Origin: Bacilli bacterium
GTDB lineage: Bacteria; Bacillota_I; Bacilli_A; RFN20; CAG-826
DNA length: 64,000 nt
Direction: 5' to 3'
Assembly: GCA_045132035.1 (NCBI GenBank)
Contig: JBGURM010000092.1
Location: 7,641-71,640 of the forward strand
In this document: piece by piece, positions 3,103 to 63,532 of the stretch
Position numbering within the stretch: the first letter of the stretch is position 1
Layout of the letters: every line of letters begins with the position of its first letter
Made by a program: the position numbers and the translations under genes
Notes under the pieces: model-generated
The model's database searches: none
What the model was told of the DNA's origin: nothing
The model's input: the letters and a program-made list of their open reading frames with translations, nothing else

Positions 3103-5013
3103 TTATTTTGTGTAAATTCTTTCTTCTGTTTCGCCATCAAAGATGAAGATTTTATGAGGTTTAACTTTAAATGCAACTGGTCCTGGAAGAACTGTGTCAT
3201 CAGCAGAAATAATTGCTTTGAAAGTTGGTTTTGTACAATTTTCGTTATTAGCAACAACACTAATATCACGACCCATAACTTGGATCATTTCACAATTAGC
3301 ATGTAAGACATCTTTGTCTTTATCACTTGCAAGAACAAATCCTTCTGGTCTAATAGCGACATAGACATCTTTATTACCAATTTCTTCATTTGCAGTATAA
3401 ACACAATCGTTACCAACAAAGACTTTCTTTCCTTCAACACGTCCATAGAAAACGTTGATTGGTGGAGTTCCTAAGAATTGAGCAACGAATAAGTTAGCTG
3501 GTGAATTGTAAACATCTTGTGGTTTACCCATTTGTTGCATTTCACCGAGTTTCATAACAACGATTTGATCGGAAATGGACATCGCTTCTTCTTGGTCATG
3601 GGTAACGAAGACAGAAGTAATACCTGTTTCTTGTTGAATACGTCTAATTTCTTCACGTGTTTGTAATCTTAAACGAGCGTCTAAGTTAGATAATGGTTCA
3701 TCTAATAACAAGACGCGTGGGTGTTTAACTAAAGCACGAGCAATAGCGACACGTTGTTGTTGACCACCAGAAAGTTGTGATGGTTTACGTTGTAAATATT
3801 CATCAACTTGAACGAGTTTTGCAGTTTCGTAAACGATATCGCGTCTTTCTTCTTTGGTGAGCTTACGGTGGCTGATTGCTTGAGAAACTGCAGTTTCAAC
3901 ATCAACAAGTTGGAATTTTTCCGCTAATTCTTTTAATAATTCAGCAGATTGTTCTTGTGATGTCTTTAATAACTTAAAGTAAATTTTAGTGTGTTCTTTA
4001 TCAAAGTAAATTTTGAAATCAGCAACGCCACATTTATGTTCCGCTAAGAATCTCTTAACGTTTTGAGTAAGTTCTCTATTGTTAACTGAAGATACTGTGA
4101 AATAAGGATTTTCATATGGATAAGAGGCTTTAACGGCTTCAAACCATTCATTAATTCTTAAGTGTTTGACACCTAAAACACGCGCCATGATTTCATAACC
4201 ATGTTGTGTCTTGGTGATAACTACTTCAGCTGGTTTTCCAAATTCACTAGAGGTTGAATTGAAGAGTTTGATTGTTTCATCAATCGAACTTGTTGAGAAG
4301 TTCTTTCCTAAACGGCCACGGAAAGAAGCATCGATTGTTTCATTTTCAGTGATTATTTCCACTGTCGCACGGAATGTTGTATCAAATAAAGCGTCACTTG
4401 ATTGAACTTCATCTTCGCTTTCAAGTTTAACATCAATAATCTTGTTAACATTATCTGCGAATAACGCTTTTGATGTTTTGGAAACATTAACTAATTCAAC
4501 TTTAATTTCTAAGTTGCGTTCTTTTTCTTGAACATCGAGCTTGAATTGTTTTCTTGAATAACCGGTTTTAGCCGCGAGTGATTGGAAAGCTTTTTTAATT
4601 CCATTAACATCATCGTCTTCCTTCATTTGATAGGAATAAGCAAGATGATATGTGAAGAATGTTTCAAGAGGAACTTCGACTTGTAAACTTGTTAATGGGA
4701 ATTCAATATTCTTATAAATTGTCATATGAGGATATAATGCGTAGTTTTGGAAAACTAAACCAATACCTCTTTTTTCTGGAGATAAGTTGGTAACTTCTTG
4801 ATCACCAAACCAAACTTCACCAGATGTTGGAACTTGTAATCCTGAAATCATATAAAGTGTAGTTGATTTACCACATCCTGATGGGCCAAGAAGACCGACA
4901 AGTGTGCCATCATCAACAACAAAATCCAAGTCCTTAACAGCGATGGTATCACGAATATTCTTTTTGGCATCGCCTGGGAAGATTTTTGTTAAACTCTTAA
5001 TCTTAATTTCCAT
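3103..5013 (-). CDS. ABC transporter ATP-binding protein (MalK/UgpC-like), 636 aa, with a ~280-aa insertion between the Q-loop and the ABC signature
   Basis: Walker A GPSGCGKST, Q-loop VFQNYALYPH, signature LSGGQQQRVAIARAL at residue ~414, Walker B LLLDEPLSNLDA, H-loop VTHDQ, and a C-terminal MalK-type regulatory domain. Confidence 0.85.
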   Translation of the reverse strand: MEIKIKSLTKIFPGDAKKNIRDTIAVKDLDFVVDDGTLVGLLGPSGCGKSTTLYMISGLQVPTSGEVWFGDQEVTNLSPEKRGIGLVFQNYALYPHMTIYKNIEFPLTSLQVEVPLETFFTYHLAYSYQMKEDDDVNGIKKAFQSLAAKTGYSRKQFKLDVQEKERNLEIKVELVNVSKTSKALFADNVNKIIDVKLESEDEVQSSDALFDTTFRATVEIITENETIDASFRGRLGKNFSTSSIDETIKLFNSTSSEFGKPAEVVITKTQHGYEIMARVLGVKHLRINEWFEAVKASYPYENPYFTVSSVNNRELTQNVKRFLAEHKCGVADFKIYFDKEHTKIYFKLLKTSQEQSAELLKELAEKFQLVDVETAVSQAISHRKLTKEERRDIVYETAKLVQVDEYLQRKPSQLSGGQQQRVAIARALVKHPRVLLLDEPLSNLDARLRLQTREEIRRIQQETGITSVFVTHDQEEAMSISDQIVVMKLGEMQQMGKPQDVYNSPANLFVAQFLGTPPINVFYGRVEGKKVFVGNDCVYTANEEIGNKDVYVAIRPEGFVLASDKDKDVLHANCEMIQVMGRDISVVANNENCTKPTFKAIISADDTVLPGPVAFKVKPHKIFIFDGETEERIYTK

Positions 5014-7886: not shown

Positions 7887-8948
7887 CTACTCTTTATCTA
7901 TCAATTTGAACGGGATTGCTTCCTTGTGATCTAAGGAATATTCAACAGCGATTTCATATTTGCTGAAGTAGACTTTTTGCTTATTTGTGTCAATTTCAGT
8001 TAACCCAAGCATATAGTCTGGAAAACCTTGTTTCCTCTTTGAAAACACCATCATGGAAAATGAAATAATGAATGGTAAACCAAAGGAAAATAGGCTTAAT
8101 ACTAGCTCTCCAAAGAAGAAAATAGCCCATCTAGCCGTATATCTTCCAAATGAAGGATTAAGCACTTTAGAATCAACAAGTCCAATTTGCATAAGCCTCT
8201 TTCCAAAGGTTGATCTTCCTCTTCTAAAAATCAAAACAGGAGGGACAAAATAGATAATCACACCAGAAACAAACACTGCAGTTGGGATTTGAATAAAAAA
8301 CAAAATGTTGGATAAAGTTTTAAGCGCAGTTTGATATTCAGGGAAGAAAGAAATTAAAAAACCACCGCAATTGGTTAATGTGTATTCTCGATAAAAATGG
8401 GTGTAATAATATTCGTCTCCCGCTTTAGCGTTTGGGTTACGAACAATCTTCTCCACCATTACGCCTCCTTCTTCTACAGTTGTCTTAATGAAAAGGTTTC
8501 TACCTTCTGAATCTAAAACTTTAGAAGATAGTCTACTTTCATCATAATTCTTCACCAATTCGTCATATTGTTCGGTTGTGCCATTATTTTGAACATAGGT
8601 AATAAAGTTATCGATCGCTAATTGGCAACGATACACCCTAGTGTGATAAGCGGTATCGTTATTGTTGTCTAAATATGTTGAAATGTTCTCCCATGTTTTT
8701 CTTTTGGAAGAATATTCAAATAACCCAGAATCTTTTCTATAAGTCGCTACGACATTATCAGCAGCGCGATATTGAGGGGTTACTTCCGCTGTTTTTTGAA
8801 CAGCAATAAACATCGCAATAAAAGTTAAGAAAAGGAAAATGATATCAAGGAAATTACCAAAACATCTCTTGATGAATGGTGGTTGCTCATAAACAAGATT
8901 AATCGAATTTTCAGGAGCGTCTATTACTTCAAGGGATTCTTTTTCCAT
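7887..8948 (-). CDS. RDD-family-like integral membrane protein with a large extracytoplasmic insertion
   Basis: N-terminal IKRCFGNFLDIIFLF (R...D) and later FGKRLMQIGLVD resemble RDD-family motifs. Multiple TM segments. Confidence 0.4.
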   Translation of the reverse strand: MEKESLEVIDAPENSINLVYEQPPFIKRCFGNFLDIIFLFLTFIAMFIAVQKTAEVTPQYRAADNVVATYRKDSGLFEYSSKRKTWENISTYLDNNNDTAYHTRVYRCQLAIDNFITYVQNNGTTEQYDELVKNYDESRLSSKVLDSEGRNLFIKTTVEEGGVMVEKIVRNPNAKAGDEYYYTHFYREYTLTNCGGFLISFFPEYQTALKTLSNILFFIQIPTAVFVSGVIIYFVPPVLIFRRGRSTFGKRLMQIGLVDSKVLNPSFGRYTARWAIFFFGELVLSLFSFGLPFIISFSMMVFSKRKQGFPDYMLGLTEIDTNKQKVYFSKYEIAVEYSLDHKEAIPFKLIDKE

Positions 8949-10145
8949 TTACTTAATATCTCCTCTTTTTTTCGCTAATTCAAGTTCTTTCATCTCTTCT
9001 TTTGCTTTAATGATCCCATCTACTTCTTCTGAAGAAATCATAACTGTTTGACTAAGTAAATCAATCGCAGACCTATTAAATGAATGGAATAAGAGAATAA
9101 ATAATCCCGCTAATAGAGCAACAACAGAAATGACGCTTAATATTGGAAGCACAGGTAATCTCAAAGAATAGATAAATGTAGTATAACTTAATGGTATGAA
9201 CATAATAAATGGCAAATCAAACACCAAATAGTATAGCGAAGTTAAAAATGCTTCTGGTTTATTAATTGGTTGAAGATGTTTATAATTAAGCCTATCAATT
9301 TTCATAATTGATTGAGTTGGAGTGTGCAATGATCGATTGATCAAAGGATAAATGACATATACGATTAGCCATCCAATAACGTAAGAAATCGCACAACACA
9401 CCGATAAAGTCGCATAATATTTATTAGCGATACTAGTCATAATTGCCTGATTTTCATTAAATGAATTACCAAGCGAATCCTTTAAATCATTCTTATAAAT
9501 GTCTTGGATTACGCATCCAAATAAAGCAGAGAATAAATCGTTAATTTTTTCATAATACTCTCTTCCTTTTGAGCCTAAATTCTCTCCAGGCATAAAATAA
9601 ATTCTTACTTCCGCAATAACTTCTTCTTTTAAAGAAACGCTTGTAGAAGTAACAATAAATAAATTAGCTTCTTTATTATGATTCAAAAACAAATCATAGT
9701 AGGTTATAGAGTCTGAGCGGATATTATTGTAATAAGTCCAAATGACTTCATTTTCTAATTTATGTGAATATTCAGGGTATTCTGGATTTAAAGATGTTTC
9801 ATCTGGGAATGTATAATACGCAAGAAACCTATTAAATGTATACGCTAAATTACTATCGAAGTCATATTTCTTATAATTACCACTAGCGTTTTCATCGGTT
9901 TTATAAAAGAGCAACTGATGTTCATAAAGAATATTGTCTCTTTTTTTCTCAGCAGCGTAAGATCTTTCAGTTTCAGGTTTAACAAAAATTGAACAAATCG
10001 GCATAACCGCAATATTCATGATGATAATGCTAATAATGAAGTGAATGAAAAAGTCCCCGAGGAAAACGAGGATTCTTCTCCATTTTGAGATTGGATGTAT
10101 ATCTATTTCTATTACTTCTTTTTTCTTGATTTGATCAGAATACAT
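8949..10145 (-). CDS. RDD-family-like integral membrane protein, paralogous architecture to the downstream gene
   Basis: KWRRILVFLGDFFIHFII (R...D) at the N-terminus, a TM-rich C-terminus, and start/stop abutting the neighbouring gene. Confidence 0.35.
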   Translation of the reverse strand: MYSDQIKKKEVIEIDIHPISKWRRILVFLGDFFIHFIISIIIMNIAVMPICSIFVKPETERSYAAEKKRDNILYEHQLLFYKTDENASGNYKKYDFDSNLAYTFNRFLAYYTFPDETSLNPEYPEYSHKLENEVIWTYYNNIRSDSITYYDLFLNHNKEANLFIVTSTSVSLKEEVIAEVRIYFMPGENLGSKGREYYEKINDLFSALFGCVIQDIYKNDLKDSLGNSFNENQAIMTSIANKYYATLSVCCAISYVIGWLIVYVIYPLINRSLHTPTQSIMKIDRLNYKHLQPINKPEAFLTSLYYLVFDLPFIMFIPLSYTTFIYSLRLPVLPILSVISVVALLAGLFILLFHSFNRSAIDLLSQTVMISSEEVDGIIKAKEEMKELELAKKRGDIK

Positions 10146-10154
10146 TCAAACACC

Positions 10155-11378
10155 TTAATTAGTGTATTTTCTTTTTATTAATAACAAACTAACCCCTAAA
10201 ATCGATAATGTTGCTAAAATCGTACTCGTTGTTGCAATATTACCTCCACAGCCTCCAGTAGAAGCCGGGCTTTCTTTACCACTACCAACTGTTATTTCAC
10301 AAGACGCATATAAGCCGTCATTTGAATAAACACTAACAGTGGCTTTTCCGTCTTTTAATCCAGTAACTAAGCCACTACCATTAACAGATGCAACACTATT
10401 ATTGTCACTAATCCATGATAATGATGGGAGAACTGCACCAGTTGGAACTGGACTTGGAGTTAATTGGACTTTTCCACCTACTTCAATAGAGTAGGAACTA
10501 TAGTTAAGAGTAATACTTGTTGCTTTTGTTTCTGGATCAGGAGGAATAACAGAACCTGAGCAAGCAGCTTTTGTGGCCGCGTTATAATTACCCCAAATTC
10601 TACAAGCATATTCTGGGTGATCAATAAATGGATTTCTATTTCCTTGACCTCCACTTGCAGTTTGAATTGCTTCGTTTCTATTGAGTTCTGCTCTTCTAGC
10701 AATATCGTTAGCGCCAGTAAATGAGGTGTTATTTGGTTGATATTGTAAGTTCCACGCTAACATTTCACTTAGTGAACCCATACAGTTAGGGTGAGAACCA
10801 GCTCCATGATAATTAAGTGGATCATCAATAAGACTTAAACTTAAATCTGCCATTGCTGCATAGAAAATAATTCTAGAAGCAGAGCCACGGTAATATTCAA
10901 CATATTTACCTGGATCATATGAAGAAACACCATATCCTTTTGAACCTCTATCACTATTGGTAGAAGTCGCTGATGGTCTTACCATATGAGCGTCATCTTC
11001 TACTGCGTCTCCACCACGGATATTTGGCCAAACATGCTCTCTATTCCAAGTGTTTCCACTGTCCCAATTTGGTCCGACTAAAGCATTATCATAAAAGCTT
11101 AAAATTTTGCCTGAACCATTTGGATCAGCGTCACTAGTTTTAGCGAATGTTCTCATTCCAGCGTAACCAACTAATCTAGTTCTTTTAGTTGTATTTAATT
11201 TATTTAGTGCTTTGAGAAGATCTTCTCCAGTTAATGTATCACTAATAGATGCATAATAATCACCTGCTGCGGCAGTAACTGGTTCAGCTTTCCTTTCTCC
11301 ACTTACCACTCCAGTAGCGACAAGACCCATACTTAAAATCGCTAATCCTGCTAATAAAAAATGTTTGATGTTTTTCAT
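10155..11378 (-). CDS. Secreted endonuclease-I-family (EndA/Vvn-like) nuclease with a Big_2 Ig-like domain and C-terminal membrane anchor
   Basis: Signal peptide MKNIKHFLLAGLAILSMGLVATG. Motifs NREHVWP, DDAHMVRPSATSTNSDRGSKGYG and NRNPFIDHPEYACRIW match Endonuclease_1 family signatures. Big_2-like segment (KVQLTPSPVP...KATVSV). C-terminal hydrophobic tail. Confidence 0.7.
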   Translation of the reverse strand: MKNIKHFLLAGLAILSMGLVATGVVSGERKAEPVTAAAGDYYASISDTLTGEDLLKALNKLNTTKRTRLVGYAGMRTFAKTSDADPNGSGKILSFYDNALVGPNWDSGNTWNREHVWPNIRGGDAVEDDAHMVRPSATSTNSDRGSKGYGVSSYDPGKYVEYYRGSASRIIFYAAMADLSLSLIDDPLNYHGAGSHPNCMGSLSEMLAWNLQYQPNNTSFTGANDIARRAELNRNEAIQTASGGQGNRNPFIDHPEYACRIWGNYNAATKAACSGSVIPPDPETKATSITLNYSSYSIEVGGKVQLTPSPVPTGAVLPSLSWISDNNSVASVNGSGLVTGLKDGKATVSVYSNDGLYASCEITVGSGKESPASTGGCGGNIATTSTILATLSILGVSLLLIKRKYTN

Positions 11379-19784: not shown

Positions 19785-20075
19785 TAAAAAAGAAGTAGCT
19801 CTAGGCGAGAGTCATTAGCTCCTGCGTCCTACTTCCTACATTCAATATATCAACGATTTGATCTAAACAAAAGTATTATTTGCCCTAGTAATTAAAAAGG
19901 AAGTAGCTCTAGGCTAGAGTCATTAGCTCCTACGTCCTACTTCCTATATTTAATATAACAATGTTTTGGCTTAAATAAAAGTATTATTTATTGTAGCAAT
20001 CAAAAAGGAAGTAGCGCTAGGCCAGAGTCATTAGCTCCTACGTCCTACTTCCTACATTTACTATAGCAATAATCA
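19785..20075. repeat. Three tandem ~108-117-bp direct repeats (~85% identical). Each contains a conserved 46-nt hairpin, GGAAGTAG...CTACTTCC.
   Basis: Hairpins at 19792-19836, 19909-19944 and 20017-20052. On the minus strand each hairpin is followed by TTTTT and preceded by a TGnTATA(T/G)T extended -10-like box. Confidence 0.8.
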
Positions 20076-29831: not shown

Positions 29832-29974
29832 GTTTTCTTGACCTCCTTTTCAATTTGTTTGGTTTTTTGAGGCTCCAATATACAGTGAGAATAAAATGTA
29901 TTTTTCTTCACCTAGGTAACATTATTAAGACTCAAACGTCCGTTACTGTCTTTGGTATATTGAAATCTTTTTAA
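29832..29974 (-). promoter_or_regulatory. Putative L10 (rplJ) leader. A 143-nt structured intergenic region sits in the position of the autoregulatory L10-leader.
   Basis: Position between rplA and rplJ. Called on position only; motifs were not verified. Confidence 0.3.
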
Positions 29975-42313: not shown

Positions 42314-42352
42314 AAAAAGCCAGTCGCCTTATTAGTAGTTAGGCAGCTGGCT
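42314..42352 (-). promoter_or_regulatory. Terminator-like hairpin plus U-run inside the 5' leader of the fibre operon, immediately upstream of the RBS. Possible attenuator.
   Basis: Minus strand AGCCAGCUGCC-loop-GGCGACUGGCU (10/11 bp) then UUUUUAAAUAGUAGAGGGGCAAAAUG. Confidence 0.45.
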
Positions 42353-42611
42353 ATCTTAATTAATATCAAGACCCTTTAGTTTTGCGTCGCCGAATCACTC
42401 CGGTTTTGCTTTTATCATAACTTTTTTGTGCACTTATTATATAATACGAAATTTTTTGTTGTAAACATTTTTTTGCGAGCACGCATTATGTGCATAAGAA
42501 ACGACAAGAAAAAAATGTAGAACCAATCAATAAAAGTGCAACATTTATGTTGCCAGTTTTCCTATAAGTTGATTTTTTTAGTGTGGAGTGTATAATACAA
42601 ACAGTTTCATT

Positions 42612-55771: not shown

Positions 55772-55820
55772 AAAATTCCCCCTATGTATGTAAAAGATTT
55801 ATTAATTAAATATAAAAGAT

Positions 55821-60857: not shown

Positions 60858-62012
60858 TTATTTAGAAATCTTTTTCTTTTTGAAGAAGAAGAATCCACCG
60901 ATAGCAGTAGCCGCAACAAGTGAGACAAGAACAATTGTCATTGTGTTGTTGTTGCTATTGTTATTTTCAGCAACGAACCCAATATTTGCTCTACCATTTG
61001 GAGTAAATGTTCCTGCTGAAGGATTAAATGTTTCTCCATTAGCAAGAGCCCATTTGCCTAATCTTTCAATTGCATCTGGGAAGCTTTCGTTTAGTTGTGC
61101 TAGCGCATAAGAGTTTGCATAAATTGCAGTATAGCCTTGTTTGGCTGCGTTATACAACGATTTACAACCATCAGAATCTCTTCCTTCGCCAGCGGCTTTA
61201 GAGGTGGTTCTGAAGTCCATAAGATTTTGACTGAAATTATGAGCCCAAACATAGTTAATGTTACTCCACCAAGTATTTTTCCCATCTAAAACTGTTTCAT
61301 TGTTAGCGAGAACATAACAGTTATTATTTCCACCATTTGTTGGTCTTGAAATTGTATCTGTCTTATTTGCATCCCCACCAACATTAAAAATGAACCTATT
61401 ATAAGCGTTTAGTAAATCAGCATAATAAACTCTTCCATTTCCGGCGCTTTCTGCTGTAACACCCATATTAACGCCAGACCACTGAGTGCTATATGCTGTG
61501 TCCCCTTGCTCGTTCCACGCATGTACTTTGACCTCACCATTGCCAAACTTATTGTCATAATCATACAAATATATTCTTAATGTCTCAGGTTCCATTGTTT
61601 TCCATCCATTATTATAAAAATAATGTGTAGAAGATGTAGGCGCGGATAAATTGTCAGATTGCATTCCATGATTATCATTATGGAATTGAATATTAGAATA
61701 AAGTGGCTGATCATTAGTTGGATGCCAAGCAAAAACAGCTTGTCCAAATTCATTATCATATGCCCACTTCATTTGCCATGCGGAAGCCCAAGTAGTTCCT
61801 GGCGTTCCATTGCCATCCCATGTATGAATTCTAACTACATTGTCACCCCAATCAGATGGTCTGGTGAAATAAATATAAAGGCTTGTGTCAGTACTAGCTG
61901 CTTCTGCTTCTTCAACTTTTGCTTCTTTAACAGCGCTAGCACCAGTAAAAGCACCGACACCTAAAAGAGTTACAAAAGCAGCAGTTAAAAACAATTTGCT
62001 TATCTTTTTCAT
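60858..62012 (-). CDS. Cell-surface protein with signal peptide, two CBM25/26-like starch-binding-type repeats and a C-terminal TM/K-rich anchor
   Basis: LYIYFTRPSDWGDNVVRIHTWDG...TTW and LRIYLYDYDNKFGNGEVKVHAWN repeats. C-terminal AIGGFFFFKKKKISK. Confidence 0.5.
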   Translation of the reverse strand: MKKISKLFLTAAFVTLLGVGAFTGASAVKEAKVEEAEAASTDTSLYIYFTRPSDWGDNVVRIHTWDGNGTPGTTWASAWQMKWAYDNEFGQAVFAWHPTNDQPLYSNIQFHNDNHGMQSDNLSAPTSSTHYFYNNGWKTMEPETLRIYLYDYDNKFGNGEVKVHAWNEQGDTAYSTQWSGVNMGVTAESAGNGRVYYADLLNAYNRFIFNVGGDANKTDTISRPTNGGNNNCYVLANNETVLDGKNTWWSNINYVWAHNFSQNLMDFRTTSKAAGEGRDSDGCKSLYNAAKQGYTAIYANSYALAQLNESFPDAIERLGKWALANGETFNPSAGTFTPNGRANIGFVAENNNSNNNTMTIVLVSLVAATAIGGFFFFKKKKISK

Positions 62013-62125: not shown

Positions 62126-62145
62126 TAAAAAGCGCCATAGGCGCT
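62126..62145 (-). terminator. Rho-independent terminator after the 62211-63293 gene
   Basis: AGCGCC-ata-GGCGCT followed by TTTTTATTATAT on the minus strand. Confidence 0.55.
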
Positions 62146-62210
62146 TTCTGTATACAAATTTCTACAAATAATTATAACTTTCGGGAGTTAGTAGAAATAT
62201 GTAACCTTAA

Positions 62211-63293
62211 TTATTTTGTTAGTCTTTTCTTTTTAAAGAAGAAGAATCCACCAACAGCTAATGCTGATACTGTAGCAATTATTGCAATTGAAGAATAGCT
62301 ACTTGTTTCAACTTCGAACGGAACAACAACTGCAGCTCCATCAACAACTTCTGGATTTGGATTGCGTCCTAATGCGGCTGCCCAATCACAATACCTCTTG
62401 TATGCCGCAGCAAACATATCATTCGTGCTTAATTCAGCATAAACTTCTTGAGTAAGATTCTCTTTCGCTGGTCCAAAATAAGTGTTGCATTGTCCTGGCA
62501 CATTTGAATCCATATGCATATATGTGTCAATCCAAGATTGAACTTTAACATCAAGAAGCGATTCCCAACTATAACCATATGAGTTCCATGCTTGACCATT
62601 ATATCCGCAAACATCGTTTGCTTGTTGTTGATGCGAATCACTATAATCGTTTGATGTAAATTTTAGTCTATTATACTTGCATGGAATAGCAGGAGTTTTG
62701 TAAACTTTTCCTCCAGTATTTTCAACAACTGTCATTTCATATCCAGGCCATGCAATTGGATAAGAGCTGTCATTATTGTTGTCTGCAAAAACATGAAGAT
62801 TTGTAGAAGAAATAACTTCGGTTTTATTTAAATAAATATAATATTCTCTTGTTAAATCTTCAAATGTCCAATTACCGGAAATGCCGCTTGAATTAACAAC
62901 ATAGGCTGTATGCTCCGTTAGAGAATTATAGTCAAAATCAATAGCTGATGTTTGTGAAGCACCTTCTTTAATATTGTTGTTAAATATAACTTTATTTGGA
63001 ATAAAGTCTAATGAAAATTCAAAATGATAAACTCCTTGAGAATGTTCGTTAGTATATTCAAAAACTCCAGCCTTTCCTGGCCAAGTTGTAGTTTTGTTGC
63101 TACTGTCATTAACATCCCAGAGATGAACAGCTAGTTGATTCCAACCAGTAGCATTTGTAACGTGAAACTTGAAATTATAGGTTGCTGCTTCTGCCTTCTC
63201 AACTTTTGCATCTCTACCAGCGTTAACACCAGCAAACACACCGACGCCAAGAAGAGCGGCCATGCAGGTTGTTAATAATAATCCTTTTTTCAT
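62211..63293 (-). CDS. Paralogous cell-surface protein: signal peptide, CBM-like N-domain, C-terminal GGFFFFKKKRLTK anchor
   Basis: The N-terminus MKKGLLLTTCMAALLGVGVFAGVNAGRDAKVEKAEAAT parallels the neighbouring gene's MKKISKLFLTAAFVTLLGVGAFTGASAVKEAKVEEAEAAS. YNFKFHVTNATGWNQLAVHLWDV CBM-like segment. AAGGAG RBS. Confidence 0.5.
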   Translation of the reverse strand: MKKGLLLTTCMAALLGVGVFAGVNAGRDAKVEKAEAATYNFKFHVTNATGWNQLAVHLWDVNDSSNKTTTWPGKAGVFEYTNEHSQGVYHFEFSLDFIPNKVIFNNNIKEGASQTSAIDFDYNSLTEHTAYVVNSSGISGNWTFEDLTREYYIYLNKTEVISSTNLHVFADNNNDSSYPIAWPGYEMTVVENTGGKVYKTPAIPCKYNRLKFTSNDYSDSHQQQANDVCGYNGQAWNSYGYSWESLLDVKVQSWIDTYMHMDSNVPGQCNTYFGPAKENLTQEVYAELSTNDMFAAAYKRYCDWAAALGRNPNPEVVDGAAVVVPFEVETSSYSSIAIIATVSALAVGGFFFFKKKRLTK

Positions 63294-63383
63294 AATTTTT
63301 GTCTCCTTCCAATTTTTAGGAGATACAAACGATACTCCTTAAAATTTTTAGATATCTTCAGGGAATTCATTCCCTAAGTGTAT

Positions 63384-63421
63384 TGAATTTAATATACCCC
63401 CCCCCCGTACCCTTTTGTAAA
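63384..63421 (-). promoter_or_regulatory. Promoter of the 62211-63293 gene with a G10 (plus-strand C10, 63397-63406) homopolymer in the -35/-10 spacer. Candidate phase-variation switch.
   Basis: Minus strand TTTACA-aaagggtacGGGGGGGGGG-TATATT, spacer 19 nt at the current tract length. Palindrome GGGAATGAATTCCC just downstream (63361-63374). Confidence 0.55.
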
Positions 63422-63532
63422 GATAAAAATTTCTAATTTTATCCTTACATTTTTTTAACCTAACAAAAAAGAGCAATCTACTTGACCACTCATAACTGTA
63501 AGTTTTAATCAAAAACAATATAAGAAACCCAC

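Follow-up and report, generated by a model that had tools for sequence, protein, structure and literature searches.

A candidate phase-variable G tract in the promoter spacer of a CBM26 surface-protein gene from an uncultured rumen Bacilli bacterium

The CBM26 gene and the G10 tract upstream of it

The 64-kb stretch of DNA that was analysed (hereafter the window) belongs to an uncultured rumen Bacilli/Erysipelotrichaceae-like bacterium. Its nearest MalQ relatives (92-71% identity) came from MAGs of uncultured bacteria (rumen, horse faeces and reindeer) that carry the label Erysipelotrichaceae, Bacilli or Bacillales. The locus under study comprises a gene for a 360-aa protein, which is the first of two tandem paralogues located upstream of malQ (GH77). 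The gene preceding it encodes a small membrane protein and runs off the window end. The relevant features are listed below.

60858-62012, minus strand: neighbouring paralogue of 384 aa, whose own upstream region lacks a tract.
62127-62149, minus strand: intrinsic-terminator-like hairpin 3' of the putatively regulated gene, with a 10-bp stem (5 G-C pairs) and then a T-run.
62211-63293, minus strand: putatively regulated gene of 360 aa, with an N-terminal signal-like segment, CBM26 and a C-terminal membrane anchor (…GGFFFFKKKRLTK).
63303-63310, minus strand: Shine-Dalgarno sequence GGAAGGAG, 9 nt ahead of the ATG, as read from the sequence.
63356-63378, minus strand: leader hairpin/palindrome CTTAGGGAAT-GA-ATTCCCTGAAG, found by folding and spanning roughly +7 to +29 in the predicted mRNA.
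63384, minus strand: predicted transcription start, about 7 nt past the -10 box, placed according to sigma-70/sigma-A promoter geometry.
63391-63396, minus strand: -10 hexamer TATATT, as read from the sequence.
63397-63406, minus strand: G10 homopolymer (C10 on the plus strand), directly adjoining the -10 box; the proposed slippage-prone element.
63397-63415, minus strand: 19-nt spacer, consisting of AAAGGGTAC (63415-63407, 9 non-G nt) and then G10.
63416-63421, minus strand: -35-like hexamer TTTACA, with 5/6 matches to TTGACA.
63465-63491, minus strand: terminator-like hairpin with T-run at the end of the upstream membrane-protein gene; the 8-bp stem (63491-63471) is followed by TTTTTTGTTA.

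The 360-aa protein matched Pfam PF16738 (CBM26) at residues 44-118, with 45.8 bits against a cut-off of 28.1 and an E-value of 6.9e-12. Together with the signal-like N-terminus and, at the C-terminus, a hydrophobic segment and then KKKR, this match bore out the original prediction of an anchored CBM-like surface protein, and the product would be surface-exposed. The protein carries LTTC, a poor lipobox, its anchor being the C-terminal transmembrane segment instead, and Cys is absent from the signal region in most family members. The NCBIfam search gave no match for six family members, including the 360-aa protein, which had 5 database relatives only. The surface proteins of this lineage evolve very fast. 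The window also contains a third ORF of 407 aa with a signal-like N-terminus, a C-terminal hydrophobic anchor and a basic tail (10155-11378, minus strand); it lies away from the malQ array and has no G tract nearby.

The tract had first been singled out as an exceptional homopolymer, and this was confirmed, C10 at 63397-63406 being the only G/C run in the window to exceed 5 nt. Under iid and first-order models, about 0.002-0.003 C runs and fewer than 0.001 G runs of at least 10 nt would be expected in 64 kb (about 0.003 for the run observed). Two accompanying figures needed correction: the GC content of the window is 35.3% and not about 30%, and the longest other run is a C5 at 55778-55782 rather than a run of 4, which is the maximum for G. 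A G-quadruplex was ruled out, as a lone G10 run cannot provide four G-runs with loops. A poly-G read artefact of two-colour chemistry was likewise ruled out, the tract being internal, with conserved flanks, and recurring in independent assemblies. Elsewhere in the window, a tandem repeat at 19785-20070 has a 108-bp unit in 2.6 copies, with 87% matches and nested TCCTACG heptamer repeats.

Read on the minus strand, the sequence runs ATCT TTTACA AAAGGGTAC GGGGGGGGGG TATATT AAATTCAATACA CTTAGGGAAT-GA-ATTCCCTGAAG … GGAAGGAG ACAAAAATT ATG, with 97 nt between the -10 box and the ATG of the 360-aa ORF. The tract thus lies, as had been proposed, inside a 19-nt spacer between TTTACA and TATATT (63421-63391), and the region upstream of the neighbouring paralogue contains none, again in line with the original prediction. 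Since the upstream gene ends in a terminator hairpin, the promoter of the 360-aa gene should be located within the ~170 nt that separate this hairpin from the ATG. When -35/-10 pairs with spacings of 15-21 nt were compared over this interval, TTTACA-19-TATATT came first with 10/12 matches. A standard scan for spacings of 16-18 nt did not pick up this promoter because its spacer is 19 nt. Given the strong terminator-like hairpin that follows the 360-aa gene, the G-tract promoter probably drives that gene alone.

Recurrence of the layout and the 5' module in related DNA

Independent copies of the window locus were sought through exact-protein look-ups with the 360-aa protein, its 350-aa database twin, the 384-aa paralogue and MalQ. 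These returned one Logan contig only and no independent allele. That contig, the sole other one covering the locus, is 100% identical over 5,384 nt, also carries G10 and probably derives from the same sample. In the closest species (L003; MalQ 92% and upstream membrane protein 81% identical), the 360-aa CBM26 gene and the G-tract promoter were both absent from positions 8310-8640, where just a terminator-like remnant was found. The gene was thus gained or lost between close species.

We have surveyed 520,347 nt of related DNA from 40 loci. Because the 360-aa protein has few relatives, homologues of a related tract-bearing gene were used for fetching further loci. Many of the tract loci were fetched through proteins (MalQ, a distant homologue or homologues of the tract-bearing gene) and not through the tract itself, whereas three of the 40 (L083, L109 and L155) were found with a pattern that requires the tract and therefore lend the association no independent support. 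The G/C run lengths were bimodal: 58 runs had length 5 and five had length 6, length 7 was missing, and 17 runs measured 8-11 nt. TATATT followed every one of the 17 long G tracts, immediately in 16 and after one extra T in L018. A -35-like hexamer was present 16-20 nt from TATATT at all of them except the contig-truncated L206, and each tract was located 33-184 nt upstream of a gene encoding a signal peptide or a membrane-like N-terminus. No G/C run of 7 or more was found outside this promoter layout in the 520 kb. Several species of the lineage present a -35 box, G8-11 and TATATT ahead of membrane- or surface-protein genes.

The loci fetched via MalQ or the distant homologue carried G10 (L002 and L020) and G9 (L018), all on the coding strand. 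In L002 and L020, the tract is preceded by TTGACA and abutted by TATATT, and in L018 the -35 box is weak (TTCAAA). Those fetched through homologues of the tract-bearing gene carried G9 (L196), G9-G11 (L198-L202) and G10-G11 (L203-L206, including L206, which starts inside the tract). At the place equivalent to TTTACA of the window, the homologous modules of relatives have a perfect TTGACA. The spacers fell into two groups, one with a total of 16-18 nt and a non-G part of 7 nt, the other with a total of 17-20 nt and a non-G part of 9-10 nt; the window, with 19 nt, belongs to the second. In the modules with the 7-nt non-G part, an 8-bp palindrome, CATTATAC-AAA-GTATAATG, was observed just upstream of the -35 box (L002 at about 4745-4765, L083, L155 and L198), with a two-sided change in L083 (CATTATGC-TTT-GCATAATG). 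This palindrome is absent from the window.

The leader hairpin was also tied to the G-tract promoters. A regular expression for the leader motif, CTT(T)WGG(G)AAT-N-ATTCC(C)TRAAG, gave 11 matches on both strands of the 520 kb, all 11 within 70 nt downstream of a G-tract promoter. The hairpin is present in L002, L083 (CTTTAGGAAT-AAA-ATTCCTGAAG), L155, L194/195 and L198-202, that of the window having one extra G-C pair, and a 5'-proximal hairpin folded in all module variants. Overall, leader identity between the window and relatives is low (58-65%), and the G-tract/TATATTAAAT junction and the leader hairpin are common to the window and the modules that differ in tract length. The hairpin could possibly act as an mRNA 5' stabiliser or as an operator. 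Rfam gave no RNA family at the window leader. Its matches in the window included a c-di-GMP-I riboswitch aptamer (42339-42420, minus strand, RF01051, 55.8 bits) and a ribosomal protein L10 leader (29882-29973, minus strand, RF00557, 50.5 bits).

These data bear on where transcription of the 360-aa gene starts, the start at 63384 being a prediction. A weaker candidate pair, TTGTTA-19-TAAAAT (63466-63436, 9/12 matches), lies upstream, and if it were the real promoter, or if the promoter were located elsewhere, the tract would be part of the 5' UTR, and any effect of it could come from RNA polymerase slippage or RNA structure. We consider this very improbable. The upstream candidate overlaps the terminator T-run and its spacing is also 19 nt, the tracts of relatives lie between a perfect TTGACA, at 16-18 nt, and an invariant TATATT, and the leader has no Rfam match. 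Transcriptional slippage on a transcribed tract was also held unlikely when considered by itself, TTGACA and TATATT being conserved around the tract.

The comparison of tract loci with each other revealed that the promoter is shared independently of the protein it precedes. A block of ~250-450 bp (about -200 to +240 relative to the tract) contains the promoter, the tract, the leader and the signal peptide. It shows 88-100% identity in the pairs L020/L196, L002/L198 and L083/L155, while the mature-protein parts of the same pairs are only 25-34% identical. Conversely, gene bodies that are 68-72% identical (L198/L203, L155/L196 and L194/L196) were found behind different modules. The promoter therefore moves as a module that recombines onto different surface-protein bodies, and the limits of the block point to a recombination point just after the signal peptide. 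Only some members of the surface-protein arrays carry the tract.

Tract-length differences and the proposed switch

Tract length was compared between contigs that are otherwise nearly identical. All lengths given here are consensus values from short-read metagenome assemblies, in which sequencing or assembly error can affect G runs of 10-11 nt. The identical 513-aa protein P0019 was present in five assemblies, with tracts of G10, G9, G11, G11 and G11. Over the 2,379 nt common to the five contigs, the tract and 2 SNPs made up all the variation. The A/T haplotype was associated with G10, G11 and G11 and the G/C haplotype with G9 and G11, and this incongruence between tract length and SNP haplotype implies recurrent change. 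For P0031, contigs from four sibling runs were available: L203 with G11, L204 with G10, L205 with G11, and L206, which begins inside the tract. One G was the sole difference between L203 and L204 over 10,397 aligned nt, and L205 agreed with L203. In the same P0019 and P0031 alignments, A/T runs of 7 were invariant.

Orthologous promoters from different contigs also differed at the tract, with a 20-nt spacer in L020 and an 18-nt spacer in L196. In one species, the promoter orthologous to that of L002/L155 has an interrupted tract, GGGGGGAGGGC, with an 18-nt spacer (L194 at 9847-9857 and L195 at 4295-4305), and to judge from its sequence this may be a locked, possibly locked-ON, allele.

The G9/G10/G11 differences could reflect sequencing or assembly noise at a tract that is neutral or a relic and has no meaningful switching rate. 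Illumina indel error goes up at long G runs, the Logan contig L206 breaks inside the tract, and the alignments contain no other homopolymer of 10-11 nt that could serve as a control. Nevertheless, five assemblies made with different pipelines (scaffolds, k141, k87 and Logan) gave three consensus lengths, and the histogram of run lengths, empty at 7 and with five runs of 6, does not fit this reading. In addition, the tract was kept at its promoter position in species whose flanking genes share only ~25-35% amino-acid identity, which argues for selection rather than neutrality. We thus regard noise at a neutral tract as improbable.

Alternatively, the tract could be a fixed structural or regulatory element, such as a rigid G:C spacer or a protein-binding site by the -10 box, with ordinary divergence accounting for the interspecies differences in length. 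This would be compatible with the narrow range of 8-11 at all lineage loci, with the G-rich character that the interrupted allele retains, with the position of the tract always right against the -10 box, and with the lack of variation at the window locus, where one other contig, 100% identical and probably from the same sample, was compared. Yet length differed among contigs otherwise identical over 2-10 kb, and did so incongruently with the SNP haplotypes. Moreover, total spacers ranging from 16 to 20 nt across homologous modules are hard to fit to a fixed geometry. A fixed element is therefore unlikely, although it is the least unlikely of the alternatives considered.

The reading that we prefer is that G10 would be the variable part of a sigma-A-type promoter spacer, TTTACA-19-TATATT. 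The promoter would drive a monocistronic gene for a membrane-anchored CBM26 starch-binding surface protein. Slipped-strand mispairing at replication would add or remove G residues, altering the separation of the -35 and -10 boxes by one base per step. As the tract abuts the -10 box, the spacing would shift with both hexamers unchanged, and promoter strength would be expected to change stepwise with tract length. G8, which corresponds to 17 nt, is predicted to be the strongest allele and G7 and G9 to be intermediate, this 17-nt optimum being taken from other systems and the helical geometry being one that G:C tracts may alter here. Among loci with a non-G part of 9-10 nt (window, L020 and L203-205), the alleles have spacers of 19-20 nt and none is clearly ON, except for the 18-nt allele of L196. 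By analogy, the 19-nt allele of the window is probably low or weak, or OFF.

In this proposal, the promoter would be part of a lineage-wide 5' module in which terminator, -35 box, G tract and TATATT precede a hairpin leader and signal peptide. This module would stand ahead of some members of the tandem carbohydrate-binding arrays beside malQ-glgB-glgP and would be swapped between unrelated gene bodies. The benefit may be bet-hedging in surface display, for instance against phage or predators or against the cost of starch attachment.

The recurring layout, the tract-length differences at homologous modules and the common leader hairpin all supported the original prediction of a phase-variable homopolymer in the promoter spacer. 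We estimate at about 0.72 the probability of the explanation as a whole, that is, of a spacer switch, a CBM26 gene under its control and an exchanged module. The sequence comparisons make it likely that the tract of the window is a functional length switch. From them we infer that TTTACA/TATATT is the active promoter and that the tract of the window itself switches, as well as the direction of the effect on expression.

Wider occurrence and comparison with known systems

We have scanned metagenomes with the pattern TTKACA-N5-14-G>=8-TATATT and obtained at least 120 loci in at least 70 sequence clusters, from many taxa and with GC contents from 25% to 66%. Among the matches listed, 48 of the 62 clusters with enough downstream sequence have an ORF start within 300 nt, and many of the downstream ORFs have signal or lipoprotein N-termini. 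This hints at a wide occurrence, in gut and environmental bacteria, of G-tract/TATATT promoters ahead of secreted-protein or lipoprotein genes.

One human-gut cluster, from many samples of an unrelated bacterium, comprises 42 contigs (a subset of L079-L193; e.g., L116 at 2382-2411) with a GC content of ~0.55-0.58. It presents TTGACA-aaataatacc-G8/G9/G10-TATATT at one promoter, and the 274-aa protein encoded downstream has a Tat-like RRQFLKG motif and an LAGC lipobox. Judging from the contig sequences, this looks like another length-polymorphic promoter tract. Two further metagenome contigs (L140 and L169, GC ~0.40) have homologous promoters with G12 (21-nt spacer) and G8 (16-nt spacer), respectively.

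For uncultured rumen Bacilli, the data suggest a contingency-locus system in which a portable 5' module of ~250-450 bp (G9-11) is recombined onto surface carbohydrate-binding bodies beside malQ-glgB-glgP. We put this forward tentatively, with the odds slightly against it. If true, it would provide a combinatorial, stochastically switched repertoire of nutrient-capture or adhesion proteins. It would also mean that phase variation based on simple sequence repeats acts on glycan-binding proteins of a Gram-positive-type gut commensal, and not on pathogen antigens, which would bring nutrient capture and attachment in gut Firmicute-type bacteria into the range of contingency loci. The signature TTGACA, N7-10, G8-11, TATATT would then serve to search metagenomes for such switches, with the warning that a metagenome-assembled consensus may hide functionally relevant ON/OFF heterogeneity.

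Homopolymer switches in promoter spacers are textbook cases of antigen control in Neisseria, Treponema, Bordetella and mycoplasmas. The locus described here differs from these cases in its starch-binding protein, in the conserved and recombining module of promoter, leader and signal peptide, and in the use of this module across a surface-protein family. Our literature search found no report of such a promoter switch for this lineage.

In Neisseria meningitidis porA and Treponema pallidum tp0126, the promoter spacer holds poly-G, slippage alters its length, and expression has its optimum at or near 17 nt (as summarised in PMC7864442). The present locus resembles both in that a surface- or outer-membrane-protein gene has a G run of ~8-11 nt in the stretch separating its -35 and -10 boxes. 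Unlike these porins and antigens of Gram-negative or spirochaete pathogens, it belongs to an uncultured rumen Firmicute-type commensal, its target is a CBM26 starch-binding protein in a glucan-utilisation locus, and its tract always abuts the -10 box. The promoters of T. pallidum tprE, G, J and tprL have poly-G tracts of 7-12 nt that vary within isolates, shorter tracts being permissive (PMC7864442). The likeness with subfamily II tpr (tprE, G and J) and tprL lies in poly-G being found in the promoters of a paralogous surface-protein family. In tprL, however, the spacing model is inapplicable because the tract is located 4 nt from the transcription start and overlaps the -10 region, whereas the present tract is cleanly inside the spacer.

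The vlp genes, whose bodies diverge, have in common a highly conserved 5' region and the signal peptide. This is also the arrangement found here, with 5' modules 88-100% identical and mature proteins 25-34% identical. As in Mycoplasma hyorhinis vlp, M. arthritidis maa2 and M. mycoides vmm, in which spacer indels turn transcription ON or OFF (PMC2268961), surface-protein genes are arrayed as paralogues, some of which have spacer tracts. The repeats differ, vlp having poly(A) and vmm TA repeats where the present promoters have poly(G), and, unlike in vlp, only some array members bear a tract here. Moreover, the vlp, maa2 and vmm products are lipoproteins with in-frame repeat size variation, whereas the proteins described here mostly have no lipobox and carry a C-terminal transmembrane anchor. 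The 360-aa protein does not belong to the Vlp lipoproteins, as it has no proper lipobox and its tract is poly(G) instead of poly(A).

In the promoter of M. agalactiae vpma, which serves a surface protein, a homopolymer also directly precedes the -10 box, and this T-tract was experimentally shown not to generate variation (PMC2268961). A homopolymer beside the -10 box is thus not in itself proof of switching, vpma being a cautionary counter-example. Unlike the vpma T-tract, the tracts homologous to that of the window differ between near-identical contigs. The mechanism proposed is one already known, of the porA, tp0126 or vlp type, and what is new is the host lineage, the starch-binding cargo and the modular 5' cassette.
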